Assembly: GCA_900764045.1 (NCBI GenBank)
Contig: CAAFMN010000024.1
Span: 14,492-78,491, forward strand
Reading direction: 5' to 3'
DNA length: 64,000 nt
Source: Clostridia bacterium
Lineage (GTDB): Bacteria > Bacillota > Clostridia > Lachnospirales > Bianqueaceae
In this document: positions 6,179-43,389 of the stretch, one piece after another
Position numbering within the stretch: the first letter of the stretch is position 1
How the letters are laid out: the number at the start of each line of letters is the position of its first letter
Notes under the pieces: model-generated
The model's database searches: none
Told to the model about the DNA's origin: nothing
Seen by the model: only the letters and a program-made list of their open reading frames with translations
Position numbers and translations under genes: made by a program

Positions 6179-6265
6179 ATAATAATCTATGAGGAAAGAT
6201 CCCCCTAAACTATATCAGTATATCATATTTTTCGGATTTGTAAAGTTTTTTTGCTGAAAATGGGG

Positions 6266-6294: not shown

Positions 6295-6330
6295 GAAGGC
6301 TGCATCAGTCAGAAAGGATAAAGAGAGAAT

Positions 6331-7593: not shown

Positions 7594-7600
7594 GAAAACA

Positions 7601-16336: not shown

Positions 16337-16350
16337 TCAGTAAAGATGCG

Positions 16351-16390
16351 AACGCCTGCGGAGAAGATTCCACAGGCGTTTATTTATTTT
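16351..16390 (+). terminator. rho-independent terminator after hup
   Basis: Stem aacgcctgcgg/ccacaggcgtt with one mismatch, then a tatttatttt tract. Confidence 0.6.
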
Positions 16391-16404
16391 CAGGAGGTGT
16401 TAGG

Positions 16405-16647
16405 ATGCGTTTGGATAAGTACCTTAAGGTGTCCCGGCTGATCAAGCGCAGGACGGTGGCCAATGAGGCCTGCGATGCAGGACGGGTGACGGTCAATGGT
16501 AAGGCGGCAAAAGCGGGAACGGTCGTGAAGGTCGGGGACGTGATCGAAGTACAGTTTGGAAACGGCGCCGTGCGCGCGGAGATTACGCAGATCACGGAGA
16601 CCACGCGGAAAGAAGAAGCTAAGGAAATGTACAAGATCCTTCCCTAA
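16405..16647 (+). CDS. yabO: S4-domain RNA-binding protein (YabO-like)
   Basis: MRLDKYLKVSRLIKRRT S4 motif, 80 aa, and conserved position upstream of yabP. Confidence 0.85.
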   Translation: MRLDKYLKVSRLIKRRTVANEACDAGRVTVNGKAAKAGTVVKVGDVIEVQFGNGAVRAEITQITETTRKEEAKEMYKILP

Positions 16648-16720
16648 GGAAGGAATATTTGCCAGGGCTCCCTCATATATTGAATTAAAGCAGGAACAAT
16701 CCGAAAAAAGGGGGGAGCAG

Positions 16721-17002
16721 ATGGTGGAGACGGCGACGCCGCACCGGCTTGTATTGGAGAACCGCAGTCATATGGAGATAACAGGGGTTCTGGATTTGCT
16801 TGTATTTGATGAGTCGGAGATCGTGCTGGAGACCTCCGGAGGTGTGCTGAATATTCGAGGGGCTGAGCTTCATATGAATACTATGACGCTGGAGAAGGGG
16901 CTGTTGATACTGGACGGAGATGTAGCGGAGATTTTTTATGAAGAGCCGGGAATGCTGAAAAAGCAAAAGACCGGGTTTATGAGCAAGTGGATAAAGGGAT
17001 GA
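16721..17002 (+). CDS. yabP: sporulation protein YabP
   Basis: YabP-like sequence (HRLVLENRSHMEITGVLDL...). Start is placed at the internal ATG preceded by RBS aaaagggggg; the longer ORF from 16556 overlaps yabO. Confidence 0.75.
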   Translation: MVETATPHRLVLENRSHMEITGVLDLLVFDESEIVLETSGGVLNIRGAELHMNTMTLEKGLLILDGDVAEIFYEEPGMLKKQKTGFMSKWIKG

Positions 17003-17006
17003 AGAG

Positions 17007-17387
17007 ATGATAAGCGAGCAGTGCCGGTTATTTCTTCTGTCAATATTGTACGGATTCGGAGCGTGGTCAGGCTACGATCTTCTGCGTCTATGGCGCAGAA
17101 TGGTGCCTCACTCGCTCTTTTTCATTCATATGGAAGATCTGCTGTTCTGGGCAGGGACGGCCCTGCTATTCTACTATGAGGCACTGTATCAGGCGGCGGG
17201 AGTGCTCCGGGCGTATTATTTTCTGGGCGGTTTGCTCGGAGTGATTGTCTGCGAAGGAACCGTAAGTCCGATTTTGCTGAAATATGCGGTGCTGGCAGCG
17301 AAAAAAGCGGGGGAACGATGGGGGAAAGTGTGGAAAAAATGTAAATCCACGGAGAAAAAATTTGAAAAAAGCTCCAAACCCCATTGA
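17007..17387 (+). CDS. yabQ: spore cortex biosynthesis membrane protein YabQ-like
   Basis: Small multi-TM protein immediately after yabP, in the conserved gene order. Confidence 0.6.
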   Translation: MISEQCRLFLLSILYGFGAWSGYDLLRLWRRMVPHSLFFIHMEDLLFWAGTALLFYYEALYQAAGVLRAYYFLGGLLGVIVCEGTVSPILLKYAVLAAKKAGERWGKVWKKCKSTEKKFEKSSKPH

Positions 17388-17444
17388 CGAATGGTGTAAA
17401 ATATTATATCATGATAAACATGAAAGCAAAAAGGCGGTAATAGC

Positions 17445-17777
17445 ATGTCGTATAGAAATAAAAGACACGACATGGCGGCGAGGGAGCAGACATCGGGCAA
17501 AAAGCCTAAGCGTTCATTGAGGAATTTTTGTATCATTGGTTGTTTTCTTGCTTTCATGTTTGGTTGTTATTGGAATTATCAGAAGCTGCAGGATGATATT
17601 GCAGCGGTTTATCAGGAAGCGCAGCTTGTTGAGAATCAGATCAGCGGGGAACTGGAGAAGCAGATCGACATCAAAGCCAAGCAGAGCTATTACAGTACGG
17701 ACGAGTATTATATGAGACTTGCCAGAATGCGGTTTAATCTGCTTCTTCCGGGCGAGCATCTATATGTGTTTGAGTAA
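17445..17777 (+). CDS. divIC: septum formation initiator (DivIC/FtsB-like)
   Basis: Single TM segment plus a coiled-coil, in the conserved position after yabQ. Confidence 0.65.
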   Translation: MSYRNKRHDMAAREQTSGKKPKRSLRNFCIIGCFLAFMFGCYWNYQKLQDDIAAVYQEAQLVENQISGELEKQIDIKAKQSYYSTDEYYMRLARMRFNLLLPGEHLYVFE

Positions 17778-20355: not shown

Positions 20356-21759
20356 ATGCAGAACATCGAAACGGAAACCAGGCGGGTTCTTATGGAAGAG
20401 GGAATCGCCGGATGCGGACAGAGACTCGTCGCAGCCTGTTCTGGGGGACGGGACTCGATCTGTTTGCTGCATGTATTAGAAAAGCTGCGGCAGGAGCTGC
20501 AATTCGAGCTATGCGCGGTTTATGTGCATCATGGCCTGAGGCCGGAGGCCGATCAGGAGGCCGCGTGGTTGATGGGACTTGCAGATCAGTGGGGGGTTCC
20601 CTGCCGAATCCGCTATGTTAATGTTCTGAAGCGGGTGGAGCGCACCGGAGAGAGCATAGAAGAAGCGGCCCGCAATCTCAGGTATGCTGTTTTGCGTGAA
20701 GAGGCAGACGGCGGATATATCGTAACCGCTCATCATCTGGAGGATCAGGCGGAAACAGTGCTTCTGCATCTGATACGAGGCTGCGGATTAAAGGGCCTCG
20801 GAGGGATGGAGAGGTGTCAGAATCAGATTTTGCGTCCGTTTCTGGGGATCCGCCGTGAGAGAATCGACGAGTACATTCAGGAAAATCATCTGAAATATAT
20901 GGAAGACGCCTCCAATGCAGACGACGCGTATACGCGCAACTGGATCCGGGTGCGGCTTCTGCCGCTGCTGCGGGAGAAAAATCCCGCCATCAGCCGGACA
21001 CTTGGAGAGATGGCCGATCTGTTGCGTGAGGAAGAGGCTTATATGGAAGAAGAAGCCGAAAAGCATTATTCAGAAGTCTGCCCGGAAGGCGAACTGCGGA
21101 TATCCGCCTGGAAAACGCTTCCGGAAGCCCTAAGGCGCCGCCTGCTACGCTTGTGGCTGGAGAGAAGCGGAGGGCTCAGGGATACCCAGAGCGTTCATAT
21201 CCAGATGTTGACAGAGCTATGCGGCAAACAGACCGGAAGCCGGATGATGCTGCCGGGCGGCCGTGTTTTTTATAAGAGTTATGACCGGCTATGTCAGGAG
21301 AATACGGTACAGCCGTCACAGGCGGAAACGCTGCTGTATATTGACGGGACATGGCATGAGACGCCTTGGGGGGAGTTTCGGGCGCAATACAGCGAAAATC
21401 CCGGAGAAAAAACAGGGAAAATCCCGGATTATCCATATACAAAATGGGTAAGTTGTGATACAATCACAGAGCCCCTTTGTATCAGGACACGCCGCACGGG
21501 AGATTATATAGGCGCCGGAGGCGGGAGAAAGAGCCTGAAAAAATACATGATTGACCAGAAGATTCCGCAGGAGCAAAGAGGAAAAATGGTATTGGCAGCC
21601 GTAGGCAGTCACATTGTATGGATCGTGACAGAACGTATGAGCGACGGATGCCGGTTAAAACAAGGAGAAAAGAAAGCGGTGCGGTTGGATTACCGTCCAG
21701 CCGGGCAGGAGAAAGAGGAGGTAAGAACGTGCAGGAACCAGGAAGAAATAATTCAGTAA
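20356..21759 (+). CDS. tilS: tRNA(Ile)-lysidine synthetase
   Basis: PP-loop SGGRDS motif, 467 aa with a C-terminal domain. Confidence 0.9.
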
Positions 21760-23573
21760 AGGGCATGGGAACCTATCTGCTGTTCATGGTGGTTATCATG
21801 ATGATCCTGTATTTTGTATGGGATAGCGTGGGTTCACAGAAGACATGGCTCAGCGATCAGGGAGCTGAGGAGCTCCTGAAGCAGGAGAGCAGCATTCAGA
21901 AAGTGCAGCTTGTTCCGGTCGCTGTCGGAGACGCGGCCTCCGGCAATGCGGTTTTTTATGTAAATGACGGTAATCAGACGCGGGTCTATTATTTCTATGT
22001 TTCTAATATAGAGAATTTCCGACAGAAGATGGCATCGGAACACAGTGCGGTTCCGATCTATACTGAGGCGTTGGAGGAGACCAGTATATGGGTAGAAATT
22101 CTGCCGTATCTGTTGGTAACCGTGGTCGGTATCATCGTACTGGTATTCGTGATGGGACGGATGCAAAACGGCGGAGGCGGGCAGGCCATGAATTTTGGCA
22201 AGAGCCACGCACGCATGGTGGATAAGAATAAGAATCCCATTACGTTCCGTCAGGTCGCTGGTTCTTATGAAGAAAAGGAAGAGATGCAGGAACTGGTAGA
22301 TTTTCTGAAGAATCCGGAACGCTTTTCCGCGTTGGGAGCCAGAATCCCTAAGGGAGTGATCCTGGTCGGCCCTCCGGGAACCGGTAAAACCTATCTTGCC
22401 AAGGCTGTGGCAGGGGAAGCCGGAGTACCGTTTTTCAGCATTTCCGGTTCTGACTTTGTAGAGATGTTTGTGGGTGTCGGCGCTTCCCGTGTGCGGGATC
22501 TGTTTGAGCAGGCCAAGCGTCACGCGCCCTGCATCGTATTTATCGATGAGATCGATGCGGTCGGACGCCGACGCGGCGCGGGACTTGGCGGAGGCCATGA
22601 CGAGAGGGAGCAGACCCTCAACCAGCTGCTGGTGGAAATGGACGGTTTTACAGTCAATGAAGGCGTAATCGTAATGGCGGCGACTAACCGTGTAGATATT
22701 CTGGATCCGGCGCTTCTGCGTCCGGGCCGTTTTGACAGGCAGATCGTTGTCAACCGTCCGGATGTGCGCGGACGGCAGGAGATTCTGGACCTCTATGCCC
22801 ATGACAAGCCTCTGGCGGAAGATGTGGATCTGAAGGCGATCGCGCATATCACGGTGGGCTTTTCGCCAGCTGATTTGGAGAACCTTCTGAATGAAGCCGC
22901 CATTCTGGCAGCCAGAAATAAACGTAAGTTCATCACGATGGAGGACGTACAGGCGTCCATGGTCCGAGTTGGTATCGGCGCGGAAAAGAAGAGTCGCAGA
23001 ATCTCCGATAAGGAGAAGAGAGTGACGGCCTATCATGAGGTAGGACACGCGATTCTGCATCATCTGCTGCCGGAGCTGGATCCGGTACACGCGATTTCGA
23101 TTATTCCGACAGGTATGGCAGGCGGTTATACAATGTCCCTGCCCCAGGATGACCATATGTATGCCAGCAAGCAGGAGCTGAAAGCAGAGATGGCGGGACT
23201 TCTGGGAGGACGTGCCGCGGAAGAGCTGATTCTGCAGGATGTGACGACGGGCGCTTCCAATGATATCGAGCGCGTCAGCGAGATTGCCCGGAACATGATC
23301 ACACGGTACGGTATGAGCGATACGCTGGGGCCGCTTCAGTTTGGAGAACAGGATGAAGAGATTTTCCTGGGCAAAGAGATCGGACATTCTAGAAATTACG
23401 GAGAGACCGTAGCCGATCAAATCGATCGTGAGGTGAAGGCTCTGGTAGATGAAGCCTACGATAAGGCGAGACAGGTACTGCATGAGAATGAGAAAATTCT
23501 TCATAAGGGTGCGGAGCTTTTGATGGAAAAGGAAAAGCTGACCGGAGAAGAATTCGAAAGCTTATTTGGGTGA
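21729..23573 (+). CDS. ftsH: ATP-dependent zinc metalloprotease FtsH
   Basis: AAA+ Walker motifs ([13 protein letters not shown]) and the HEVGHA zinc motif. A GTG start with RBS gaggagg is preferred and overlaps the tilS 3' end by about 31 nt. Confidence 0.93.
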
Positions 23574-27511: not shown

Positions 27512-28882
27512 ATGAAAACGATTTATATGATCAGAGGGTGGATCTGCCGTATTTTCAAACAATATGAACTGATCGCCAAGGTGCTGTTGAAGTTCGGCGC
27601 ATATCTGTTTATTTTCCGGCAGATCGCAGGATGGGACGGCTTTCAGAATATCGGAGTGCTCAACGCGTTTTCTGTGCATATGTTGTTGGCGCTCTTGTGC
27701 GTATTGCTGCCGGCCCGTTTTGTCGCGTTCTTTTCAGTAGCGATCATCGTCTATAATATTTATCAGGTATCCTTCTGGGGCGCACTTATGGCGGCGGCAC
27801 TGCTTCTGATACTCTATGTGATGGTATCCAGACTTTGTCCGGATGAGACGGTGCTGATGATCCTGATGCCGTTGGCGATGAAATGGAATCTTGTCCTGGT
27901 CGTTCCGTTGTTCGCGGGATTGTACATGGGCGTCTTTTCTATCATACCGATCGTGGGAGGAATTCTCCTGGCAGGATTCCTGAAGATTATTCCGGCGTTT
28001 ACACAGTTTAATGTGACAGCGATAGACGCGCTTCCGGCAGCCATGTCGGAAACCATGAGCTATATCGGGGATCAGCTTCTTAAGAATGAGAACCTGATCT
28101 TTACGATGATCCTGTGCGCGGGTGTTGTATTGGTTGTATATCTGCTCAATAAGATCAGCATCAATTATATGCGGTATTTATCCTTGTGCGTGGGCGCACT
28201 GGTAGGCTTGGTGTGCTATATTGTCGGCAAGATGGCAGGTATGACGGATACAGGCATTTTGGCTGCGTTGGTGATACCGATCGTATCACTGGCGATTATG
28301 ATCGTGGTGGAGTTTTTCCATATGGCGCTCAACTATCAGATGGCGCAGCGTTTGGCGTTCGCGGATGATGAGTATTACTATTATGTGCGTGCCATCCCTA
28401 AGATTCTTGGTATCCGCAATAAGACTGAGGTCAAGACAATTACGACCGGAAGAAGCCAGGAAAGCCGCGAGACCGAGCCGGTGGTAGTACATGAGTTGGA
28501 GCCGATGGAGAAGCCGGAAGGGGAGGCAGAGCATGTGCCTTCAGAGCGAGAAGAAAAACTGGCGGCCGCGGTCAATGAGAAGAAGCAGCAGGCAACGCGG
28601 AAGCTGGATTCGGTATTGCATCAGCTTGGCAGCAAAGCTAAGGATATGATGGATAAGACCAAGGAAAAGCCGAAACAGAAGACGGAAGAAAAGCAGGAGC
28701 CAAAGAAGCCGGAGGGGACAGAGATTCCGAAATCTCCGGTACATGGCGAGAACTTTGAAGTGCCGAGACCGGAAAGCGCTGAAGAGCTTGCTAAGCGGAC
28801 AGGCTGGTCAGAAGAGACGATCCGAGGCTTTTTCGAAGGATTGGATATGGAGTCTCAACAGGAAGACAAGGAGAAAAAGTAA
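27512..28882 (+). CDS. hypothetical polytopic membrane protein with charged low-complexity C-terminal tail
   Basis: 456-aa ORF with about 8 TM helices and a roughly 150-aa K/E-rich disordered C-terminus. Confidence 0.5.
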   Translation: MKTIYMIRGWICRIFKQYELIAKVLLKFGAYLFIFRQIAGWDGFQNIGVLNAFSVHMLLALLCVLLPARFVAFFSVAIIVYNIYQVSFWGALMAAALLLILYVMVSRLCPDETVLMILMPLAMKWNLVLVVPLFAGLYMGVFSIIPIVGGILLAGFLKIIPAFTQFNVTAIDALPAAMSETMSYIGDQLLKNENLIFTMILCAGVVLVVYLLNKISINYMRYLSLCVGALVGLVCYIVGKMAGMTDTGILAALVIPIVSLAIMIVVEFFHMALNYQMAQRLAFADDEYYYYVRAIPKILGIRNKTEVKTITTGRSQESRETEPVVVHELEPMEKPEGEAEHVPSEREEKLAAAVNEKKQQATRKLDSVLHQLGSKAKDMMDKTKEKPKQKTEEKQEPKKPEGTEIPKSPVHGENFEVPRPESAEELAKRTGWSEETIRGFFEGLDMESQQEDKEKK

Positions 28883-29843: not shown

Positions 29844-31149
29844 TTTTGTTAAAAAGTTTTTCTCCAAAAATCTTTTGTTAAAGATATTCTCCGTTGTATT
29901 CTCATTTTGTCTGTGGGTGATGGTCGTCAACCAGCAAGACCCTGTAACGACGGAGACGATTCATAATATACCGATTGCCATACAGAACGAAAATTATTTT
30001 GAAGAGCAGAACCAGCATGTTACACTGGAATCGGAGATGAGGCTCAGTGTGACAGTGAGCGGACGTCGATCGATCGTAGAGAATCTGACGGCGGATAATT
30101 TTAACGCGTATATCGATTATCTGGCTGTACAGCCGGAGGAAGGACGCGCGGAGGTTTCCTGTACGGTTGATGATCGGAACGTGACAGTGAAGCATCAGAG
30201 TGTATCCTATGTCAGGCTTAATGTGGAAGATATCGTATCCAAGGAGTATACGATTCAGCTCCGCACGGAAGGAACGCCGGCGGAGGGGTATGTTGTCGTC
30301 GCGCAGGACGCGTACGCGGTAATGGAACCGTCGGTTGTAATCCTTTCCGGACCGCAGAGTCAGATTGACAGAATCGCTTCCGCGGAAGCCGTGCTGGATG
30401 TACAGGACGCTTCTGATACGGTATCGGGCAAGGGCAAGGCCATCACTTTCCTGGATACGGACGGCAATCCGGTGCTTCTGGATGAGCTGGAGGATATCTC
30501 CTATTCGGCCAAAGTGATGATGCAGCTGAGCGTGCCGGTGTATTTTGTCCAGGAGGTTCCGATCCGCACGGTGGAGATCACGGAAGATCCGAATAATGAG
30601 TATTATGTGGATAGTAGCAGCCTCTCGCAGGAGTCTGTTCAGCTCTACGGTCCCAAGAATGTTCTGGCCGGTATTACAGAGATTGAGCTTGCGGCGGTGT
30701 CGGCAGCAGATAAAACCGCGACATTCCAGCAGAGCTATGACCTGGCGGCAGTTTGTACCAAGATGTCTCAGGAATACGGAGTGCATATAGGACTCGTCGG
30801 CGGCAGCGCGTCGCAGACGACTCTGACAGTCAATATGAAGAAAAAAGAGATCCGAAGTTTCAGCATTACAGGGCAGAACTTTACCTGGCAGAACTCCGTC
30901 AAAGGCAAGACCTATACCTTGGCGGACAGCAGCGCTATCGTCCAGATACAGGGGAAGCCTTCAGCGCTGGACAGCCTGACATCGGCCAATATTCGCTGTA
31001 TGGCAGATGTAGGGGCATTGACCGAAAACGGAACGTATGAGGTGAGTATAGTCTATGCAGCGCCGGAGGGCCTGAAGGTTTACGGAGCGCCGCAGACACT
31101 CAGTATCGTGGTCGCGGATGAAGATACAGCGGGAACAGCGCAATCATAA
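29836..31149 (+). CDS. cdaR: CdaA regulatory protein CdaR (YbbR-like domains)
   Basis: N-terminal TM segment plus repeated YbbR-like domains, translationally coupled to cdaA. Confidence 0.85.
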   Translation: MLDFVKKFFSKNLLLKIFSVVFSFCLWVMVVNQQDPVTTETIHNIPIAIQNENYFEEQNQHVTLESEMRLSVTVSGRRSIVENLTADNFNAYIDYLAVQPEEGRAEVSCTVDDRNVTVKHQSVSYVRLNVEDIVSKEYTIQLRTEGTPAEGYVVVAQDAYAVMEPSVVILSGPQSQIDRIASAEAVLDVQDASDTVSGKGKAITFLDTDGNPVLLDELEDISYSAKVMMQLSVPVYFVQEVPIRTVEITEDPNNEYYVDSSSLSQESVQLYGPKNVLAGITEIELAAVSAADKTATFQQSYDLAAVCTKMSQEYGVHIGLVGGSASQTTLTVNMKKKEIRSFSITGQNFTWQNSVKGKTYTLADSSAIVQIQGKPSALDSLTSANIRCMADVGALTENGTYEVSIVYAAPEGLKVYGAPQTLSIVVADEDTAGTAQS

Positions 31150-31174
31150 CAAGCAGTATGGGAGGAGCGGCCAC

Positions 31175-32833
31175 ATGCCGAAGTTTTATAAAAAGAGTCG
31201 GCTGGAATTTGTCAGAAACCACTGGGGTAAGGATTTCAGCGACAGTGTGCAGGACGATCTGAATTTTCCGGATCTGGAAGAGTTCTTTGTAGACATGATG
31301 AAGCGGGCGGATTGGATCCTGGATGACCAGACCTGGAACGACATGGAGATGAACCGCATATTCTGCAAGCTGGACCGGGCCTATTCCATGCCGGGACAGC
31401 AGATGCTGTATAATATGCTGCGTACGCTGATCTTCGATGAGGAGGAGTTGAAGCGGCGGGACCGGGTGATGGATTATATCCAGCACAATGGAGAGGCAAG
31501 GGATAAGATCGCCTGCCTTCTCTTCTATCTTGGAAAAGTGGAGTATGATGGGGCAGCGTCCCTATTGTTCCATGGGATTCCTAAGCTGCCGGATTCCGCG
31601 TCCTGGGCTAACGGTCTGGCTCTGGCCATGCTGGCGGCACTTGTTTCCATCCCGTTTATGGGCTTTGGCGGATTGATGATGACAGCGGTTATGTTTGTAA
31701 TCAATACCGTTTACCATCAAAAGCTCAACGCCAGAACAGAAGCGACGATGCCGGGCGTTCAGTTCATCGCGAGGATGCTTACGGTTGCGGAAGAGATGGG
31801 TAATATGGATATTCCGCAGCTCGATAAGGGATATCTGAGCTTTTTCCGTAAATGTGTAAAGAAGTGCGGAATCATCAAGAAAAAGGCAGGCCGACTCGGA
31901 ATCGGAGGCAATGATCCGATCGGACTTGTAGAATATCTCAAGATCTTGTTCCTGACAGAGGACCGTGCTTTCATCCGGTGCCTGAAATATGTGGAGCAGG
32001 AGGCGCCTGTACTGCGGGTCCTGTACCGTAAGATCGGAGAGCTGGACGCATTGATGGCGATGGCATCCTTCCGCAGAGGGCTGCGCCGCATGACCAAGCC
32101 GGTATTTGTTTCGGAGCCGAAGTATTTTAAGGTAGAGAATATCACGCATCCGTTGCTGACCAAGGGTGTGCCCAATTCCCTGGAGATGACGGGGGGCAAT
32201 GTAGTGATCACCGGATCCAATATGTCCGGTAAATCCACGTTTTTGCGGACATTGTCCACGGGAGCGGTGTTGGCGCAGACCTTCTACACGGTTCCGGCGG
32301 ACTCTTACACGGCATCCTTTTTCAATATCCTGACATCCATCAGTCCGAGCGATAACCTGATCGAGGGCAAGAGTTATTATATGGCGGAAGCCGAGGCGCT
32401 GCTGCGGATGGTGCAGACACTGGACGAGAACCGGACCTCGTTGCTGATGATCGATGAGATCTTCCGTGGGACCAACCCCATTGAGAGAGTGGCGGCAGCC
32501 TCTTCATTGCTGTCCTATCTGGCCAGACACAATACGATGGTCATTGTAGCGACCCATGATATTGAGATTACACAAAAGGTGGCAGATCAATATACCAGTT
32601 ATCATTTTAGTGAGAATGTCACGAAGGATGCGCTGGATTTCGACTATAAGCTGAAGCCGGGAGTTCTGAAAGTGCCGAACGGTATCCGAATTTTGGAATA
32701 TCTGGGATATCCGCAGGAGATTACGGACGAAGCCTATCGGGAGACCGGTTATGTCGGATTGACAGCTGCCGAAGAGAAACAAAATCAAGATCAAGATAAA
32801 AATACTATACAGGGGGTAGATCAAGATGAGTAA
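31175..32833 (+). CDS. MutS-related protein (MutS domain III/V ATPase with TM segments, no mismatch-binding domain)
   Basis: Walker A (GSNMSGKST), MutS signature (LMIDEIFRGTNP) and a THD motif. Hydrophobic helices lie around residues 160-200. It occupies the position where glmM normally follows cdaR. Confidence 0.75.
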   Translation: MPKFYKKSRLEFVRNHWGKDFSDSVQDDLNFPDLEEFFVDMMKRADWILDDQTWNDMEMNRIFCKLDRAYSMPGQQMLYNMLRTLIFDEEELKRRDRVMDYIQHNGEARDKIACLLFYLGKVEYDGAASLLFHGIPKLPDSASWANGLALAMLAALVSIPFMGFGGLMMTAVMFVINTVYHQKLNARTEATMPGVQFIARMLTVAEEMGNMDIPQLDKGYLSFFRKCVKKCGIIKKKAGRLGIGGNDPIGLVEYLKILFLTEDRAFIRCLKYVEQEAPVLRVLYRKIGELDALMAMASFRRGLRRMTKPVFVSEPKYFKVENITHPLLTKGVPNSLEMTGGNVVITGSNMSGKSTFLRTLSTGAVLAQTFYTVPADSYTASFFNILTSISPSDNLIEGKSYYMAEAEALLRMVQTLDENRTSLLMIDEIFRGTNPIERVAAASSLLSYLARHNTMVIVATHDIEITQKVADQYTSYHFSENVTKDALDFDYKLKPGVLKVPNGIRILEYLGYPQEITDEAYRETGYVGLTAAEEKQNQDQDKNTIQGVDQDE

Positions 32834-35201
32834 GAAAACCTTGCAGGAAATGCAGCCGCTGGCAGATGTCCTGAACAGAGATATCGTCTGCGCATGCGGC
32901 AAGACGCACCGTGCCAATATCGACGCGGTCGTTATCGGACGTGGAGCCATGGAATACGTTCCGGAGCTGCTGCAGCAGCACGGTATGAAGACGGTAATGC
33001 TTCTGGAGGATACGCATACGCATGAGGCTGCCGGAGAACAGGCGGCTCAGTTGATCCGGAACGCTGGAATCGAGGTCTATGAACATATTTATCAGCGCGC
33101 GGATGGATGGCTGACGGCGGATGAAGTAGCGATGGAGGAAGGCGTGAATGCTTTTCGCGCCTGTGAGAACCGCCCGGACGTGATTATCTCCGTAGGTTCC
33201 GGTACGCTGAACGATCTGGGAAAGGTGATCGGAGAGATGCTGGGCGGCGTGCCGCAGTGGATCATTGGAACCGCTGCTTCTATGGACGGATACGCGTCTA
33301 CGGTAGCAGCGCTGGTGCGCAACAATCTGAAGGTAACAGAATACTACAATCCGCCCAAGGTCATCATCGGCGATATGGCGGTGATGTGCAAAGCTCCGAG
33401 GTCTATGACACTGGCAGGAATCGGCGATATGGCAGCTAAGTACAATTCCGGCCTGGACTGGAAGCTCAGCCATCTGATCAATGGAGAATATTATTGCGAT
33501 TTTGTAGCTAAGGCCATGTTAAAGGTAACGGACCAGATCATCGATCTGGCGTTGGAAGCTCCGGAAGAAGGAGAGTTTGGCGATGAGCTGCTGGCGAGAT
33601 TGATGGAAGGACTGGTTCTGTCCGGCGTATATATGAGCTATATGGGATCTTCCCGAGCAGCTTCGGGTTCTGAGCATCATTTCTCTCATTTTTGGGAGAT
33701 GTGGCTGCAGCTGAACGGAAAGCCCGCGATCTATCACGGAACCAAGGTAGGCGTAGGTACGCTGATCATGGACCGTTTGTACCGTGAGTTCCTGACATTG
33801 GATATTGAGGCGCGCCGTGTTATTCCGAGGCTGCGCAAGTTTGATGAGGCGGCATACCGCAAGAAGCTGGAAAAGGTATATGGCGCCGCCGCTCCGGCCA
33901 TTCTGGCTGACTATCATTATGACGCGGAAGAGAGAATCCGCCGGTTGGGATTTATTTTGGAGAATCGCCGCACGATCAATGCGATTATCCGTGAGGCGCT
34001 GCCTTCGCTGGATAAGATGCGCAAGGCGATGGAGCATGTAGGCGCGGTTCGTGATTGGACGGGATTGCCCCACATCACGGGTGAGGTGGCGTTGCAGGCG
34101 CTGCTGTATTGCAAGGAGATGCGTCCCCACTATACCATGTTGCAGATGCTGCAGGACGTAGGATATAACATCAAGAAGTTCGCGCCCAAGATGGTTGAGG
34201 CAGGATATCTGCGCCTGGATCAGATTCAGATGCGGGACCCGTTTGTACTTCCGGTAGAGGAAGAGGGCAAATACTATCTGTTCGGCACGACCGATCCCAG
34301 CTGCTGGAGAGGTCCCTTCTATGGATTTGATTGTTTTGTAAGCGAGGATCTGGAGCATTGGGACGGACCGATCGCCGCTTTCCGGCCGGATGAGAATTTC
34401 TGGGGAACCCGGAACAACTGGGCTCCGGAGGTGCATCGCTATCGCGGTAAGTATTATATGTTCGCGACCTTTGGATCGGAGAAGCGCTATAAGGGTACGC
34501 AGATCCTGCGTTCTGACCGTCCGGAGGGTCCCTATATGCCTATATCCGACGGCCCGGTAACACCGGCGGAGTGGGACTGCCTGGATGGTACGTTCTACCT
34601 GGATCCGGACGGACAGCCGTGGATTGTATTCTGCCATGAATGGACGCAGATTATAGACGGAGAGATTGTGGCCATGCCTTTGAAAAAGGATTTGACCGGA
34701 CCGGCCGGAGATCCTGTTAAGCTTTTCTCGGCATCGGAAGCTTCCTGGGCATCCGGACGTCCGTGGAAGGAACGTCACCCGGAGTCAGACAGCGACGCCT
34801 ACAGCTATGTAACGGATGGCCCGTTTATGGTAGAAGACGGGGATCAGTTGATGATGCTCTGGTCTGGAAGAGGCCCCAAGGGTTATGCCATGGGCAGCGC
34901 ATATTCTGAGGGCGGAATTCTTGGCCCCTGGAAGCAGAACGAGCAGCTTGCCTTTGAAGAAGACGGCGGCCATGGTATGGTCTTCCGTAAATTTACGGGC
35001 GAATTGATGATGACAGTGCATCAGCCCAATCAAACGCCCAACGAGCGTCCTAAGTTCTTTGAGGCGAAGATTCAGAATAAGGCGATTGTACTTGCTTCCG
35101 CTAAGGAAGAGCCGGAACAGAAGCCGGAGGAGCAGGCGAAACCGCTCAAGAGACAGCAAGGCGTTCATGTAAAGGATGAGATGCCCTATTGGCTTCTGTA
35201 A
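32826..35201 (+). CDS. fusion protein: AraM/EgsA-like glycerol-1-phosphate dehydrogenase domain plus GH43 glycoside hydrolase domain
   Basis: The N-terminal ~430 aa carries Fe-ADH/G1PDH-like motifs (GSGTLNDLGK, TAASMDGYAS, HGTKVG). The C-terminal ~330 aa carries GH43 beta-propeller motifs (DPFVLP, WAPEVH, FCHEW, GPFMV). Confidence 0.7.
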   Translation: MSKKTLQEMQPLADVLNRDIVCACGKTHRANIDAVVIGRGAMEYVPELLQQHGMKTVMLLEDTHTHEAAGEQAAQLIRNAGIEVYEHIYQRADGWLTADEVAMEEGVNAFRACENRPDVIISVGSGTLNDLGKVIGEMLGGVPQWIIGTAASMDGYASTVAALVRNNLKVTEYYNPPKVIIGDMAVMCKAPRSMTLAGIGDMAAKYNSGLDWKLSHLINGEYYCDFVAKAMLKVTDQIIDLALEAPEEGEFGDELLARLMEGLVLSGVYMSYMGSSRAASGSEHHFSHFWEMWLQLNGKPAIYHGTKVGVGTLIMDRLYREFLTLDIEARRVIPRLRKFDEAAYRKKLEKVYGAAAPAILADYHYDAEERIRRLGFILENRRTINAIIREALPSLDKMRKAMEHVGAVRDWTGLPHITGEVALQALLYCKEMRPHYTMLQMLQDVGYNIKKFAPKMVEAGYLRLDQIQMRDPFVLPVEEEGKYYLFGTTDPSCWRGPFYGFDCFVSEDLEHWDGPIAAFRPDENFWGTRNNWAPEVHRYRGKYYMFATFGSEKRYKGTQILRSDRPEGPYMPISDGPVTPAEWDCLDGTFYLDPDGQPWIVFCHEWTQIIDGEIVAMPLKKDLTGPAGDPVKLFSASEASWASGRPWKERHPESDSDAYSYVTDGPFMVEDGDQLMMLWSGRGPKGYAMGSAYSEGGILGPWKQNEQLAFEEDGGHGMVFRKFTGELMMTVHQPNQTPNERPKFFEAKIQNKAIVLASAKEEPEQKPEEQAKPLKRQQGVHVKDEMPYWLL

Positions 35202-37568
35202 TGGGAGAAGAAGGGGCAGTTCATGTCTCCATACGGCAGATGGTTGAATTCATCTGCCGTGGCGGAGATCTTGCCAGTGGGGGCTTCAGCGGACCGGAGC
35301 GGGCTCTGGAGGGTACGAGGATTCATCAGAAGCTGCAAAAGAGCCGTTCCGCAGCCTATAGGAACGAAGTTCCCATGCTGCTTGCGGTATCTCTCGAGGA
35401 TGGGCTGTGCCTGGAAGTTGAGGGCCGCGCGGACGGAGTGGAAGAGCTGATGGATCTGGAGGCTCCCTGCCGTATCGAAGAGATCAAGTCAACCTATGCG
35501 TCCGCGGAGCATTTGGGCTTTTCATATGAGCCCGCGCACCGCGGACAGCTTTTGTGTTATGGGCATATTCTGTGCGAGAAGGAAGGATATGCCGCCGTTT
35601 GGCTCCGCCTGACGTATTATCAGATGGAACAGGAAAAAGAGTATACGTATGATGAGCTGTGGCGGGCGGAAGATCTGCGGAACTTTTTTACAGAGACGGT
35701 AGAAGCCTACGCAAAATGGCTGCGCTGGAGCAGCGAACATCTTGCCAAACGTACGCGGAGCCTGCAGAACCTGAAATTTCCCTTTCCCGCGTACAGAACA
35801 GGACAGCGGACGATGGCCGCCTATGTATACAAGACTATTCAATCCGGCGGCGGAATTTTTATACAGGCGCCCACAGGAACCGGCAAGACGGTGTCGGCGC
35901 TTTTCCCGGCCCTGAAGGCTATGGCCAATGGATTGACATCCAAGCTCTTTTATCTGACGGCCAAGACGGCGACGGGACTTGCGGCGCAGGATGCCTTGGA
36001 CAGACTGTCAGAGCAGAAGCCGGAGCTGATCAGTATTACATTGACGGCCAAAGATAAGATCTGTCCTCTGGAGGAAAGAAACTGCGATCCGGAGAACTGC
36101 CCGTATGCCAAGGGACATTATGACCGGATCAATCAGGCAGTGTACGCGGCAATTACGCAGTACCGGCAGATTGGGCGGGAGCTTCTGCGCAGCCATGCGG
36201 AAACGTATCGGGTATGCCCTTTTGAGCTGGGTCTGGATATCAGTACCTGGGCCGATGTGATCATTGGAGATTATAATTACGCGTTTGACCCGACAGCGTC
36301 CTTAAAACGTTTTTTCCAGGACCAGAAAACAGAGTATACTCTATTGGTGGATGAAGCCCATAATCTGCCGGATCGGGCGCAATCTATGTACAGTGCGGAA
36401 GTGACCGGGCAGATGTTTTTTGAGTTTGGACGGATCTTCCGCGGCAAACCGGTTTCCTGGAGGAGAGCTCTCCGGCGGGCACAGCGACGATTGGTTTGAC
36501 CAAAAGGGAGAAGAAGTCAAAGAAGGCGAATGCATTACCTATTCCGCACCCTCCCAGGAGCTGGTAACGCTGCTGGCGGAGTTCAATACTCAGCTTGCCG
36601 AGTGCCTGACGCAGGAGGCAGGAGTGGAAGAGTGGATGGAGCTGTATTTTCAGGTACAGTTTTTCCTGAAGATGGAGGAAGAGTACGATGAGAGTTCCGT
36701 CACCTATCTGGAAAAAATAAGCGGTCAGCCAGTTTACAGGATTTTTTGTGTCCATCCGGCACAGAAACTGTGGCAGCGCTATGAGAAAGTGCGTTCCGTC
36801 ATTCTCTTTTCCGCAACGCTTTTACCCATTGAATATTATAAAGAGCTTTTGGGAGGCAATGATCCGGAGCATCCCATGGACGCGATCTATCTGGAATCCC
36901 CGTTTGATCCGGCACATAAACAGGTGCTTGTGGCAGCCGGAATCCGCGCGGATTATCAGAACCGGGAGAGGACGGTGGGAGCCGTAGCCGCTGTGATCTA
37001 CCGCACCGTACAGGCCAAGGAGGGAAATTACATGGTCTTTTTCCCATCCTATCCGTATTTGCGGCAGGTCGCCGCTTTTTTTCGAGATGCTTATCCGGAG
37101 ATAAACCTCTGGGAGCAGAGCCCGGGGATGAATGAAGAGGAGAGAGAGGATTTCCTGGCGCGATTTCAGGAAAATCCGCCCTGGGGTATCGGATTTTGCG
37201 TACTTGGGGGCGTTTTTTCGGAGGGAATCGATCTTAGAGGCCGGCGGCTGATCGGAAGCCTGATTGTGACGGTAGGATTTCCGCAGATCGGTATGGAGCG
37301 CGACCTTGTGAGAGAATATATGGATCGCCTTTGCGGACGTGGATTTGACTATGCCTACAGGTACCCGGGACTGAACCGGGTGTTTCAGGCGGCCGGACGC
37401 GTGATCCGCACCGAAGAGGACCGGGGGATCATCTTATTGATTGATGAGCGCTACCGGGAGAGAAGATATCTTAAGAGTATGCCGCCGGACTGGAATCCCA
37501 GAATCGTTCCGGCGCAGGAGATCGAGAGAAACATAATAGAATTTTGGAGAAAACAGGAGTTAGAGTAA
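35201..37568 (+). pseudogene. Cas4-like PD-(D/E)XK nuclease plus DinG/XPD-family Fe-S helicase, interrupted by a frameshift near 36420-36500
   Basis: N-terminal nuclease motifs are RADGV, IEEIKS and QLLCY. The helicase carries a Walker A (APTGTGKT), a 4-Cys cluster (CPLEERNCDPENCPYAKG), a DEAH box (VDEAHNL) and a Helicase_C_2 domain. The two halves lie in different frames and overlap at 36420-36499. Confidence 0.65.
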
Positions 37569-38379: not shown

Positions 38380-39281
38380 ATGGATACTTACAGGAGACCT
38401 TTGGGAAAAAGGTCTACAAGATGGCGTTAAATGGCGGCATGACCTGCCCGAATCGGGATGGAACTCTAGGCTGGGGCGGCTGCATTTTTTGCAGTGCGGG
38501 CGGGTCCGGAGAATTTTCTCCGTCGGCAGCGCTGCCGATCCCAAGACAGCTGGCGGAGGCAAAGGAGAGGCTGAAGAAAAAGTATAAAGGAAACGCGTAC
38601 ATTGCTTATTTTCAGTCCTTTACCAATACATACGCGCCAGTCTCTTATCTGCGGAAGATTTTTTATGAGGCGATCCAGGATCCGGAGGTCGTCGCACTGT
38701 CCATCGCGACAAGACCGGATTGTATAGCAGAGGAAACGCTTGCGCTCCTGCGGGAATTAAACCGACATAAGCCGGTCTGGGTGGAACTGGGACTACAGAC
38801 TTCCAACGAAAAAACAGCGGAGCAGATTCACAGAGGGTATGGGCTGGCTTGTTTTGAAGACTGTGTCCGGAGGCTAAAGGCAGCCGGACTGCAGGTGATT
38901 GTACATGTGATTTTAGGCTTGCCAAATGAGACAAAAGAGTGTATGATAGATACGATCGAATATTTGAATCAAGTGGAAATCCATGGGATCAAGCTGCAGC
39001 TTCTCCATGTGCTGAAAGGAACACAGCTGGAGAACATCTATCGTTCCGGAGCGTTTCAAGTATTGGATCTGGAAGAATATACGGATATTTTATGTGATTG
39101 TATAGAGCATTTGTCTCCGGATGTTGTCATTCATCGTCTGACGGGGGATGGCCCGCGCCGGCTTTTGATCGCGCCTTCCTGGAGTACGGATAAGAAGGGC
39201 GTCAGGAATTATATTCATCAGGAGTTCCTACGCAGAGAGATCTGCCAGGGGCGGCTCCAAGGGAAAGGAGAGAGCCAGTGA
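38361..39281 (+). CDS. TIGR01212-family radical SAM protein
   Basis: CPNRDGTLGWGGCIFC radical-SAM cysteine motif with YtqA/TIGR01212-like architecture. Confidence 0.8.
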   Translation: MWYRDLNGYLQETFGKKVYKMALNGGMTCPNRDGTLGWGGCIFCSAGGSGEFSPSAALPIPRQLAEAKERLKKKYKGNAYIAYFQSFTNTYAPVSYLRKIFYEAIQDPEVVALSIATRPDCIAEETLALLRELNRHKPVWVELGLQTSNEKTAEQIHRGYGLACFEDCVRRLKAAGLQVIVHVILGLPNETKECMIDTIEYLNQVEIHGIKLQLLHVLKGTQLENIYRSGAFQVLDLEEYTDILCDCIEHLSPDVVIHRLTGDGPRRLLIAPSWSTDKKGVRNYIHQEFLRREICQGRLQGKGESQ

Positions 39282-40921
39282 TTCGAATTACTCAGTTAAA
39301 GCTTTCGATCGAAGAACCCATAGAGGCTTTGGAGCCGCTCATCTGTAAGCATCTCAAGATTCAGAAAAAGGATCTGGTTCGCTGGGAGATTCTCCGGCGT
39401 TCGCTGGATGCCCGCAGAGGGCATGCTTTTGTTTTCTCCTATACGGTAGAGGCAGAGGTTACCAATGAGGCGGCCTGCTGGAAAAGATTGACGCAGAAGA
39501 AGGACATGGAGCTGCGGGAGGAGACTGCAGCGAGTTTTCCGGCTCACGCCGGCTATCAGAGCAAGGAGAGGCCGGTGGTCGTGGGCTTCGGTCCGGCCGG
39601 AATGTTCTGCGCATTGGTTCTGGCCCGGGCAGGGCTCTGTCCGATTGTTCTGGAACGAGGACGCAGAGTAGAAGAGAGGGCGCAGGATGTGGAACGTTTC
39701 TGGAAGGAGCATGTCCTGCAGCCGGAATCCAATGTACAGTTCGGAGAAGGAGGCGCGGGAACATTTTCCGACGGTAAGCTCAATACGCTGGTCAAGGATA
39801 AAGAGGGCCTCGGCCGCTGGGTGCTTCGAGAGATGGTTCAGGCTGGCGCGCCGGAAGAGATACTGTATGACAGCAAGCCACATATTGGGACCGATCGGCT
39901 GCGGGAGGTTGTCCGCGGGATTCGGCAGGAGATCGAGAATCTGGGCGGCGAGATCCGATTTGAGACGAAGCTGGAGGATGTGGAAGCCGTTTCGCAGGGA
40001 CTTCGTCTGAGTACCGTCTCTCATGGAGTTCGTAACCATCTGCAGGCGGAAGCCGTCTTTCTCGGGATTGGACATAGCGCACGGGATACATTTTCAATGT
40101 TAAAAAAAGCGGGCCTTCTTATGGAGCCCAAGCCTTTTGCGGTAGGACTTCGGATTGAGCACCCGCAAAGCTTTGTGGATCATCTTCAATATAGGGAATA
40201 CGCAGGGCATCCGGCTTTGGGGGCGGCCTCCTATAAGGTCGCTTACACGGAGCCCGGCGGACGGGGCGTATATTCGTTCTGCATGTGTCCCGGCGGTCTT
40301 GTTGTAGCCTCCGCTTCCGAAGAGGGAGAGATGGTGGTCAATGGCATGAGCAATTACCGCAGAGATGAGAAGAATGCGAATTCCGCCATTCTGGTTACGG
40401 TTACGCCGGAGGATTATCAGAAGTATGGAGAGGATGAGCTGGCAGGCGTTGCCTTTCAGCGCTGCCTGGAACGGGCGGCATACCGGCTGGGAGGCTCCGA
40501 CTGGCGGGCGCCTGTTCAATATGTGGGAGAGTATCTGAAGGGACAGGGCCTGGAGGTACCCAAGGGACAGCCGCCTTTTTCAGAGGTAGAACCCAGTTGC
40601 ACTTCCGGATGGAAGGCAGCGGAGCTGGGAGAGGTTCTGCCGGAAGCGCTTGCTCATTCGTTGGGACTGGGCCTTTTGGGCTTTGAAAAGAGTATGCCGG
40701 GCTTTGCTTCAGCCGGCGCGGTATTGACCGGAGTGGAGTCCAGGAGTTCTTCACCGGTTCGGATGCTGCGGGATGCGGCGATGAATTCTTCCATACCGGG
40801 GCTTTACCCGATCGGAGAGGGCGCAGGCTATGCGGGCGGTATTATGTCCGCAGCGATGGATGGACTCAAGGCAGCCAGAATGTATCTGCGGAAACTGGAG
40901 GGAGGAGCATGTGGTATGTAA
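39278..40921 (+). CDS. FAD-dependent oxidoreductase (COG2509-like)
   Basis: Rossmann GFGPAGMFCA motif and a GGAGTFSDGKL motif, 547 aa, with a GTG start after RBS aaaggagag. Confidence 0.7.
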   Translation: MIRITQLKLSIEEPIEALEPLICKHLKIQKKDLVRWEILRRSLDARRGHAFVFSYTVEAEVTNEAACWKRLTQKKDMELREETAASFPAHAGYQSKERPVVVGFGPAGMFCALVLARAGLCPIVLERGRRVEERAQDVERFWKEHVLQPESNVQFGEGGAGTFSDGKLNTLVKDKEGLGRWVLREMVQAGAPEEILYDSKPHIGTDRLREVVRGIRQEIENLGGEIRFETKLEDVEAVSQGLRLSTVSHGVRNHLQAEAVFLGIGHSARDTFSMLKKAGLLMEPKPFAVGLRIEHPQSFVDHLQYREYAGHPALGAASYKVAYTEPGGRGVYSFCMCPGGLVVASASEEGEMVVNGMSNYRRDEKNANSAILVTVTPEDYQKYGEDELAGVAFQRCLERAAYRLGGSDWRAPVQYVGEYLKGQGLEVPKGQPPFSEVEPSCTSGWKAAELGEVLPEALAHSLGLGLLGFEKSMPGFASAGAVLTGVESRSSSPVRMLRDAAMNSSIPGLYPIGEGAGYAGGIMSAAMDGLKAARMYLRKLEGGACGM

Positions 40922-41544: not shown

Positions 41545-43389
41545 ATGTGTGGAATCATCGGATATATCGGTAAAGAAGAGAAGGCGACCAATATTATCAT
41601 GGAAGGGTTGGCCAAGCTGGAATACCGGGGATATGACTCGGCGGGAATCGCGGTTTTCACGCCCTCAGGGATCTGTATAGAAAAGAAAAAGGGAAGGCTG
41701 TCCAACCTGGCGGAGCATCTCAAGGAGGTCGGTTTTCCGCAGGGCTATGCCGGAATCGGCCATACCCGCTGGGCAACGCATGGAGAACCGTCCGATATCA
41801 ATGCGCATCCGCATTGCAGTATGGATCACTCGGTGGTTGTGGTACATAATGGTATCATCGAAAATTACGCACAGCTGCGGGATCAGCTGATTGCTCAGGG
41901 GAGTTCCTTTGTCTCTGAGACGGATACGGAGATCCTGGCCAATGTGATCGCATGGTATTATAAGCAGGAAAAGGAGCCGGTGAAGGCGATCAATAAGGCT
42001 CTCAGTGTCATGCGTGGTTCTTATGGTCTGGGAATCCTTTTTGCGGACCATCCGGACACGATATACGCGACAAGAAAGGACAGTCCCTTGATTGTAGGAC
42101 TTGGTAAGGGAGAGAACTATATAGCCTCGGATATCCCCGCCATACTGAATCATACCCGGGACGTATATCTTCTGGAAAATCATGATATCGCGGTCCTGAC
42201 GACCGATACGATTCAGATCGTCGGAGCGGACGGAAATCCGGTTCACAGGGACATTTTCCACGTGACCTGGGATGTAGCGGCGGCAGAAAAGGGCGGATAT
42301 CCGCATTTTATGTTGAAGGAGATCTATGAGCAGCCCCAGGCCGTCAGAGACACACTCAATTCTCGGCTGCAGGATACGGTGGACCGCCCGAGAATGGAAG
42401 ATCTGGGTATCGGTCAGGAAGTATTGGACAATCTGGATCGGATCTATCTGGTAGCCTGCGGTACAGCATATCATGCGGCGATGGTAGGCAAATACCTGAT
42501 TGAGCGGATTGCCAGAGTCAGTACGGTCGTGGAGACGGCCTCCGAGTTCCGGTATCGGGATCCGATCATTGATGAAAAAACACTGGTCATTGTCGTATCG
42601 CAGTCCGGAGAGACGGCGGATACGCTCGCGGCGCTACGGATATCCAAGGCTGCCGGAGCTAAGGTGCTGGGCATCGTGAATGTTGTCGGCTCCAGTATCA
42701 GCCGGGAAGCGGATTATGTATTCTATACCTGGGCTGGCCCGGAGATTGCCGTTGCCAGTACCAAGGCCTATTCCTGCCAGCTCGCGGCCATGTACCTATT
42801 AAGCGCCCATTTTGCCATGCTGCGTGGGAAGATGACTACAGAAGAGTTCCGGGCGCTGCGCAGCGATCTGATCGGTCTGCCAGCCAAGATTGAGGAGATC
42901 CTTCAGAAGGCGGAAGAGATCCATAAGATTGTGGAAGAGAATGATCCATACAATGTGTTTTATGTCGGACGAGGACTGGATTATTACACCGGTATGGAGG
43001 GCTCCCTAAAGCTCAAGGAAGTCGCGTATCTGCATAGTGAAGCCTATGCTGCCGGAGAATTGAAGCATGGACCGATCGCGATGATTGAAAAGGGAACGCT
43101 TGTGATCGGCATTGTGACGCAAAAGAGCCTGATCGAGAAGACCATCAGCAACCTCAAGGAGGTCAAGGCCCGAGGCGCGAAGGTGCTCTGCATTGCGGCG
43201 GAGGATGCGGATATGGCGTTGATCCGCAGTGTAGCGGATGAGATCATCACCATTCCGTCCTGCAATTGGATGTTTACCTCGCTGCTGGCCAATATCCCGC
43301 AGCAGCTGATCGCCTATTACATGTCCGTAAAAAAGGGATACGATGTAGATAAGCCGAGAAATCTGGCCAAAAGTGTCACCGTTGAGTAA
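41545..43389 (+). CDS. glmS: glutamine--fructose-6-phosphate aminotransferase
   Basis: MCGIIGY N-terminal nucleophile and two SIS domains, 614 aa. It lies 3 nt after the NusG paralog, leaving no room for a glmS ribozyme. Confidence 0.95.
   Translation: MCGIIGYIGKEEKATNIIMEGLAKLEYRGYDSAGIAVFTPSGICIEKKKGRLSNLAEHLKEVGFPQGYAGIGHTRWATHGEPSDINAHPHCSMDHSVVVVHNGIIENYAQLRDQLIAQGSSFVSETDTEILANVIAWYYKQEKEPVKAINKALSVMRGSYGLGILFADHPDTIYATRKDSPLIVGLGKGENYIASDIPAILNHTRDVYLLENHDIAVLTTDTIQIVGADGNPVHRDIFHVTWDVAAAEKGGYPHFMLKEIYEQPQAVRDTLNSRLQDTVDRPRMEDLGIGQEVLDNLDRIYLVACGTAYHAAMVGKYLIERIARVSTVVETASEFRYRDPIIDEKTLVIVVSQSGETADTLAALRISKAAGAKVLGIVNVVGSSISREADYVFYTWAGPEIAVASTKAYSCQLAAMYLLSAHFAMLRGKMTTEEFRALRSDLIGLPAKIEEILQKAEEIHKIVEENDPYNVFYVGRGLDYYTGMEGSLKLKEVAYLHSEAYAAGELKHGPIAMIEKGTLVIGIVTQKSLIEKTISNLKEVKARGAKVLCIAAEDADMALIRSVADEIITIPSCNWMFTSLLANIPQQLIAYYMSVKKGYDVDKPRNLAKSVTVE

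Follow-up and report, generated by a model that had tools for sequence, protein, structure and literature searches.

A probable recent 8-bp deletion disrupts an EndoDinG nuclease-helicase gene in an uncultured human-gut Clostridia species

Introduction

DinG-like proteins carrying an N-terminal PD-(D/E)XK nuclease were defined as EndoDinG in a 2025 review (Cheng 2025, PMC11981726), and the first EndoDinG structure, that of Finegoldia magna DinG (FmaDinG; PDB 9KQH), was reported by Li et al. (Cell Mol Life Sci, July 2026, PMC13650095). FmaDinG is a Mn2+-preferring endonuclease and 5'-3' helicase with a 4Fe-4S cluster, in which the Arch domain contacts DNA and digestion into duplex DNA is ATP-dependent (PMC13650095). 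Mutagenesis validated its nuclease residues H40, E54, R73, D75, E88 and K90, the ATPase residue D378 and the DNA-binding residues K249, K278/K280, F478, R578, F698 and R733; the isolated N-terminal domain is active as a nuclease in vitro, and protein with a disrupted Fe-S cluster ends up in inclusion bodies (PMC13650095). Here we describe an EndoDinG locus in a 64,000-nucleotide stretch of DNA (hereafter the window; GenBank assembly GCA_900764045.1, contig CAAFMN010000024.1, positions 14,492 to 78,491 of the forward strand) from an uncultured human-gut Clostridia species. The family has already been named and structurally solved, and the window copy is a typical orthologue, with the exception that its reading frame is broken by the loss of one unit of an 8-bp tandem duplication, likely a genuine and very recent inactivation.

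Results

Identification of the locus as an EndoDinG orthologue

The locus occupies window positions 35201..37568 on the forward strand (2368 bp, as opposed to 2376 bp for the 791-amino acid (aa) gene of intact relatives) and comprises two open reading frames (ORFs). ORF1 (35201..36499, +) is a 432-aa N-terminal fragment in frame 2, starting with the ATG at 35201, which overlaps the stop of the upstream gene (TAATG), or alternatively with the TTG at 35189; the second open frame, ORF2, lies in frame 0 (36420..37568, +). The repaired protein matched 9KQH chain A over residues 7-767 with 36% identity (E 5e-144), and chance origin is excluded because a match of this strength links it to a solved member of the family; XPD (1e-27) and DinG (6FWR; 2e-11) were weaker PDB matches. 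A search with the provisionally repaired protein returned >7,600 homologues at E <=1e-10. Among the best 120 homologues listed, nearly all are ~770-810 aa long and share the same Pfam architecture, and the named ones come mostly from metagenome-assembled genomes (MAGs) and isolates of Clostridia and other Firmicutes, in which they are annotated as 'ATP-dependent DNA helicase' or 'Rad3-related'. In the window, Pfam DEAD_2 was detected in ORF1 (E 2.3e-11) and Helicase_C_2 in ORF2 (E 1.3e-40), and NCBIfam gave sub-threshold rad3/DinG/YoaA matches to both halves.

The N-terminal part corresponds to a PD-(D/E)XK endonuclease domain (~aa 1-190; 35201..35770, +), as judged from residue mapping onto FmaDinG and from profile matches. 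A profile of the N-terminal 190 residues hit the N-domain of 9KQH at 1.2e-59, the next match being the Cas4 structure 4IC1 (1e-3, across the catalytic core), which represents Sulfolobus SSO0001 (PMC5704561). The NCBIfam Cas4 model TIGR00372 weakly matched aa 38-161 (E 3.6e-5, 23.7 bits vs a cut-off of 65), and PF12705 (PDDEXK_1) was detected in 8 of 22 family N-domains. Residues were mapped in an alignment of 122 sequences, consisting of the repaired window protein, FmaDinG and the 120 homologues, that is, 121 relatives of the window protein. The six validated nuclease residues of FmaDinG, H40, E54, R73, D75, E88 and K90, correspond to H42 (codon 35324-35326), E56 (35366-35368), R76 (35426-35428), D78 (35432-35434), E94 (35480-35482) and K96 (35486-35488) of the window protein and are invariant, except for an alignment gap, two exceptions at R76 and the engineered D75A of the crystal construct. 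R12, Q116 (35546-35548) and Y120 (35558-35560) accompany this set in the family alignment as further conserved N-domain residues, Q116 and Y120 being counted among the catalytic positions. The corresponding motifs read GTRIH (H42), EGRADGV (R76, D78), IEEIKS (E94, K96) and QLLCY (Q116, Y120). C119 is the sole conserved cysteine of the N-domain, the 4-Cys cluster being located in the helicase part.

The helicase motifs upstream of the lesion are the Walker A sequence (motif I), APTGTGKT (aa 223-230; 35867..35890, +), in which A223, P224, T225, G226, G228, K229 and T230 are conserved in >=97% of 42 family members; the 4Fe-4S domain (36062..36217, +) with C288 (36062-36064), C295 (36083-36085), C300 (36098-36100) and C339 (36215-36217), invariant in 121/121 relatives and equivalent to FmaDinG C282/C289/C294/C333; and the DEAH box (motif II; aa 384-387; 36350..36361, +), whose D384 corresponds to FmaDinG D378, the site of the ATPase-dead mutant. 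Downstream of the lesion, the out-of-frame C-terminal remnant, equivalent to intact residues 433-791 (36489..37568, +), contains no internal stops and holds the rest of the Arch domain with the DNA-stacking F486 (36648-36650; FmaDinG F478), motif III SAT (aa 540-542; 36810-36818), and MD2 with Helicase_C_2 (~36999-37499) and motif VI QAAGRVIR (aa 732-739; 37386-37409), ending with the TAA stop at 37566-37568. Motifs III and VI are conserved in the family alignment, and all mapped functional residues of the remnant are still intact. Across the 121 relatives, D384, F486, R591, the P-motif proline P697 and R753 are invariant, and K255, K284, K286 and F718 show conservative K/R or F/Y replacements only; the FmaDinG Arch DNA contacts D475 and K482 are E and F in the window, both positions varying across the family. 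The XPD-like core motifs are, in sum, complete in the window but spread across two reading frames.

Judged from its sequence, the locus is an EndoDinG orthologue, i.e., it belongs to those DinG/XPD-family proteins that have a PD-(D/E)XK endonuclease at the N-terminus, and an intact window enzyme would be expected to act as a Mn2+ endonuclease and 5'-3' helicase. A preliminary description of this DNA had read the gene as a PD-(D/E)XK nuclease of the Cas4/RecB-like fold fused to an XPD/DinG Fe-S helicase. The fusion is borne out by the profile matches of the N-terminal domain to PDB (9KQH N-domain, 1.2e-59; Cas4 4IC1, 1e-3), which place it in a nuclease rather than a non-nuclease fold, and the motifs quoted there, along with the 4-Cys cluster, DEAH box and Helicase_C_2, are all present within 35201-37568.

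The reading frame is broken by the loss of one 8-bp tandem unit

The preliminary description had further proposed that the gene is interrupted by a frameshift between 36420 and 36500. The interruption was confirmed, and the frame switch lies within that bracket, because the last frame-0 stop before ORF2 ends at ~36404 and frame 2 is closed by the stop at 36497-36499. In the best homologue, P0001 (791 aa), this region is GQMFFEFGRIFRGKPVSWRRALRRAQRRLIDWFDQKGEEV, and ORF1 stays in the orthologous frame up to RRAQRRL. At the DNA level (96% identity), the window gene differs from that of P0001 by one indel, 8 bases missing after ~36486.

For comparison, nine intact loci from several public samples were used (L001, L002 and L005-L011), of which L005-L008 are the closest intact alleles, from four different assemblies, and L009-L011 form a more distant group with ~92% DNA identity. 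Alignment of both halves of the gene to the intact orthologues located the indel as a single 8-bp gap relative to all nine loci, the intact genes being 96-97% identical in the gene alignment. In the comparison with L005 (97.3% identity over 22.4 kb), the gap is the only indel. The sequence of the closest intact alleles is CAGCGA-CGATTGGT-CGATTGGT-TTGACC, encoding RRLVDWFD, with the repeat pair encoding L-V-D-W, whereas the window reads CAGCGA-CGATTGGT-TTGACC; one unit of a perfect 8-bp tandem duplication is gone, a signature of slipped-strand mispairing. The sole remaining copy of CGATTGGT, which is the deletion junction, lies at 36488..36495 (+), the placement of the deletion being ambiguous within 36488-36496. 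In the corresponding 90%-identity cluster of 48 members, nearly all complete proteins are 791 aa long, with the same gene neighbourhood.

A T6 homopolymer, ATGTTTTTTGAG (36416..36421, +), next to which the preliminary description had placed the frame break, is not the lesion. The actual deletion lies ~70 nt 3' of the run, ORF1 crosses the run in the orthologous frame, and the run is identical in the intact alleles L001-L008 (L009-L011 read T5). The same description had allowed for an intact single ORF after correction of a homopolymer error. Deleting one T at 36416-36421 indeed opens a 788-aa frame, but ~26 residues of it (LSLDGSS...GGHSD) are unlike those of every orthologue and the run is unchanged in the intact alleles, and this repair was rejected. 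Frameshifts located beside a homopolymer should be aligned to orthologues before they are repaired; here the homopolymer fix yields an open but wrong frame.

Predicted consequences for the enzyme

By homology with FmaDinG, an intact enzyme would bind a 5' single-stranded tail through its MD1-MD2 motor and translocate 5'-3' on ATP, the duplex would be separated by the Fe-S and Arch domains, and the DNA would be threaded via a gated entrance into the N-terminal nuclease, which would cut endonucleolytically with a preference for Mn2+. In the window lineage, slipped-strand mispairing would have removed one CGATTGGT unit of the tandem pair, shifting the frame such that translation would stop at codon 433, within the Arch domain. 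The premature TGA (36497..36499, +) follows V432 in the context GTT TGA C.

The 432-aa product of ORF1 comprises the nuclease, the first part of MD1, the Fe-S domain, the DEAH box and the start of the Arch domain, so that the nuclease domain, Walker A, the Fe-S cluster ligands and DEAH are kept. It is devoid of most of the Arch domain (including F486, which sits 3' of the frameshift), motif III and all of MD2, including motif VI, and for this reason cannot be a helicase. The translated product is predicted to be unable to hydrolyse ATP productively or to translocate. At best, it would be a nuclease fragment that works independently of ATP; instability is more probable, and with its end in MD1/Arch the fragment may misfold.

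Evidence for a genuine allele and alternative explanations

We consider it likely that the window carries a real, very recent, lineage-specific loss-of-function allele (a pseudogene), with a deletion that appears to be biological rather than technical in origin. The 432-aa truncated product is recorded on four contigs; the 310-aa C-terminal product appears in the cluster table but has no record in the contig index. DNA was obtained for two of the four contigs, one assembled by Logan from SRR3993059 and the other an ENA scaffold of SAMN05414985; they match the window with 100% identity along 5.2 kb and 4.6 kb, respectively, junction included. These two contigs may share one sample, and as such they show reproducibility across assemblers, not independent occurrence. 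When substitutions were polarised onto the window lineage using up to nine intact comparators, the untranslated C part of the gene had accumulated 11 nonsynonymous and 16 synonymous changes, as opposed to 2 and 9 in the N part and 0 and 10 in the upstream gene; the baseline of four intact coding stretches (the upstream gene, the EndoDinG N part, MBL and radical SAM) comprised 11 nonsynonymous and 45 synonymous changes. One of the window-lineage changes, L696F, adjoins the P-motif proline at a position which is L, I or M in 121/121 relatives. The nonsynonymous excess in the C part together with L696F is suggestive of real inactivation, albeit not conclusive. Pairwise dN/dS ratios (nonsynonymous to synonymous substitution rates, omega) against L001 were 0.03 for the N part, 0.10 for the C part and 0.08 for the MBL neighbour, and given the similar omega of the C part and the MBL gene, the inactivation, if real, must be very recent. 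Several observations weigh against a genuine loss of function. The excess in the C part falls short of significance in the Fisher test against the baseline (p 0.06), the pairwise dN/dS values reveal no clear relaxation (C part omega of 0.10 next to 0.08 in the intact MBL gene), no secondary stops or further indels occur 3' of the lesion, and the three deletion-bearing records are 100% identical, possibly derived from one read set, so that their independence is unproven. The same identity of the records would fit a technical artefact, in which the intact gene has both copies of the 8-mer and the junction with a single copy is a product of sequencing, of slippage during library amplification or of a consensus error. 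This explanation, which we regard as unlikely, also draws on the apparent origin of the sequence from a metagenome assembly, on the otherwise undamaged remnant with all functional residues intact, and on the junction having 0 exact matches among 185,579 species-representative genomes. It is countered by the loss of 8 bp being unlike a homopolymer-type error, by the recovery of the same junction in the Logan, ENA and NCBI records, i.e., from different pipelines, and by the gap being the only indel in 22 kb. Furthermore, typical assembly k-mers are longer than the 16-bp repeat, whose collapse by assemblers would not be expected; the weak nonsynonymous excess 3' of the lesion likewise favours real inactivation. 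Where the preliminary description left the choice between pseudogenisation and a sequencing indel, a recent pseudogene is favoured; the loss of an 8-bp tandem unit is not typical of a sequencing indel.

A loss-of-function allele would nonetheless be the wrong description if the gene were still functional, either through low-level +1 ribosomal slippage at GUU UGA C or because the 432-aa fragment persists as an independent Mn2+ nuclease. If the ribosome slips by +1 precisely at the stop, it re-enters the downstream frame, the frames rejoining as ...RRLV|DQKG... to give an EndoDinG three residues shorter, and the site resembles the prfB CUU UGA C. UGA followed by C is, moreover, a weak stop context. 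However, no Shine-Dalgarno-like stimulator is present upstream of GUU at the prfB spacing, re-pairing of tRNA-Val on UUU would be poor, and the site stems from a recent lineage-specific deletion, with >40 relatives using a plain ORF. Retention of the fragment would be consistent with the in vitro nuclease activity of the isolated FmaDinG N-domain (PMC13650095) and with the window-lineage changes in the N part (2 nonsynonymous, 9 synonymous) relative to the C part (11 and 16), but the latter difference is not significant (p 0.27), and a fragment ending inside MD1/Arch is likely to misfold, with Fe-S-disrupted FmaDinG forming inclusion bodies (PMC13650095). Continued function is accordingly very unlikely; if true, by recoding or by retention of the fragment, it would represent a natural separation-of-function variant of EndoDinG. 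The nature of the intact gene could be questioned too, as the PADLOC model PDLC01439 'typeIV_DinG' (CAS-IV-A associated) matches both halves (E 1e-51 and 6e-71) and Cas4 models match weakly (PADLOC, 9.4e-6; TIGR00372, 3.6e-5), which could point to a CRISPR-associated CasDinG or another dedicated defence helicase, and the preliminary description had mentioned a CasDinG-like link. The PADLOC match, however, covers only the generic XPD helicase core, from aa 187, and the NCBIfam Csf4 model TIGR03117 reaches 18 bits, with a cut-off of 400. The Fe-S domain has its four cysteines, as opposed to the degenerate CasDinG module (PMC13650095), housekeeping genes surround the locus (LysS, CdaA, YbbR, MutS-like, MBL hydrolase, radical SAM, NusG-like and GlmS), and no Rfam family, CRISPR repeat families included, matched in the 64 kb. 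Because no cas genes were seen within ~10 kb, the locus is not a CasDinG, a role in defence of this kind being scarcely credible, and the CasDinG-like link gives way to assignment to the EndoDinG subgroup (PMC11981726, PMC13650095). The strong match of PADLOC typeIV_DinG to a helicase in a housekeeping context implies that defence pipelines could mislabel EndoDinG genes as CasDinG.

Gene neighbourhood and relatives

Upstream of the pseudogene candidate lie GreA, LysS, CdaA, YbbR, a MutS_V protein and a Fe-ADH/GH43 fusion, and downstream an MBL-fold hydrolase, a radical SAM protein, an FAD-dependent protein, a NusG-like protein and GlmS. None of the genes called within ~10 kb on either side belongs to a cas-related Pfam family, and Rfam and tRNA scans of the 64-kb window recovered no tRNA gene and no Rfam family at the gathering threshold. 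GlmS (41545-43389) directly follows the NusG-like gene, with no glmS ribozyme found upstream of it in the Rfam scan.

The gene immediately upstream (32826-35201, +) encodes a 791-aa protein in which a Fe-ADH_2 domain (aa 36-191) is fused to a GH43 domain (aa 469-736); its stop overlaps the EndoDinG start (TAATG), and it is directly upstream in relatives down to ~62-65% identity. Two genes upstream of the nuclease-helicase, a 571-aa MutS-like paralogue (31118-32833, +), with MutS domain V (ATPase) as its sole domain match, has a conserved position in the same clade. The order Fe-ADH/GH43 - EndoDinG - MBL is kept down to ~62-65% identity and is absent at 37-40%, where the neighbours vary, and no conserved partner gene emerged from synteny as a functional clue. 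Relatives with the retained order include Candidatus Faecimorpha stercoravium and Clostridia MAGs from the goat and human gut. Among species representatives, the nearest are the uncultured Clostridiales MAG MGYG-HGUT-04224 (95%) and, at 97%, a contig from a bin labelled Alloprevotella. Locus L012 (CAVGBV010000044.1), from the bin 'Alloprevotella sp.', has 97-98% protein identity to the window locus and the same gene order, and is probably a mis-binned contig that contaminates an Alloprevotella MAG.

Apart from this locus, the window showed no split genes. The pair 20356-21759 and 21618-23573, the only overlapping ORF pair, was considered as a second split gene and rejected, as the two correspond to TilS and FtsH with an overlap caused by ORF extension. 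In L008, from another sample, the FAD-dependent gene (6236-7863, orthologous to window 39278-40921) is split into 337-aa and 196-aa products, with several small indels relative to the window around 40262-40295; the gene is intact in the window, and the split reflects either a disruption particular to that strain and separate from the one described here, or a local fault of the assembly. Elsewhere in the window, a 456-aa ORF (27512-28882, +), for which neither our own scan nor the precomputed orthologue annotations gave a Pfam match, is conserved between LysS and CdaA in related contigs, and a run of small ORFs (80-148 aa; 16058-17777, +) shortly precedes SpoIIE (17927-20248), after which come TilS and FtsH, a layout that resembles the usual Firmicutes sporulation and cell-division cluster.

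Discussion

The scientific weight of the locus is small: classification of the architecture dates from 2025, its structure and assays from 2026, and the copy is a typical orthologue with a strain-specific inactivating deletion. As regards the in vivo role of EndoDinG, the allele contributes a small data point; if it is real, the loss of EndoDinG in one gut lineage suggests that the enzyme is dispensable under some conditions.

Among the described systems that share an XPD-family core or a related nuclease, CasDinG (Csf4) of type IV CRISPR-Cas resembles the window locus in its 5'-3' helicase core. It has, by contrast, a degenerate Fe-S module and no PD-(D/E)XK domain (PMC13650095) and is adjoined by csf genes, whereas the window locus has all four cysteines and housekeeping neighbours. 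The nucleases of Cas4, AddB, Dna2 and MGME1 share the catalytic core H...D...ExK...QxxxY with the window domain, and in Dna2 and AddAB the nuclease is paired with a helicase and a Fe-S cluster, as in the window. Unlike Cas4-type proteins, the window nuclease domain does not carry a 4-Cys cluster of its own, the cluster being part of the helicase. Membership in Cas4 was considered and rejected in view of the TIGR00372 score (23.7 bits vs the cut-off of 65), the single conserved N-domain cysteine and the absence of a cas1/cas2 context.

The four-domain XPD core with a 4Fe-4S cluster is common to the window locus, E. coli DinG and YoaA, and archaeal and eukaryotic XPD, but the latter proteins are without the N-terminal nuclease and the window scores far below the equivalog cut-offs. 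ExoDinG (Staphylococcus aureus and Bacillus DinG) comes closer in overall design, with an N-terminal nuclease on an XPD-family core and degradation coupled to 5'-3' translocation. Its nuclease, however, has a DEDD/DnaQ-like 3'-5' exonuclease fold rather than the PD-(D/E)XK fold of the window domain, and its Fe-S domain is a pseudo-domain (PMC13650095). Assignment to ExoDinG was rejected, the models TIGR01407, PRK08074 and PRK07246 aligning only with the helicase, from ~aa 183 on, at 12-62 bits vs cut-offs of >540.

FmaDinG remains the closest described counterpart. The domain order PD-(D/E)XK nuclease, MD1, 4Fe-4S, Arch and MD2 is common to both, the nuclease residues, Fe-S cysteines, DEAH aspartate, Arch phenylalanine and most of the MD2 DNA-contact residues are conserved in the window, and the host of the window, as an anaerobic member of the Clostridia, falls within the taxa listed for the subgroup. 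The two proteins differ in sequence (36% identity) and in that the window frame is broken in the Arch domain by the 8-bp deletion, which makes the full enzyme impossible. In place of the single uninterrupted ORF of ~750-800 aa that characterises EndoDinG, the window thus holds a member of the subgroup by descent, but a disrupted one.

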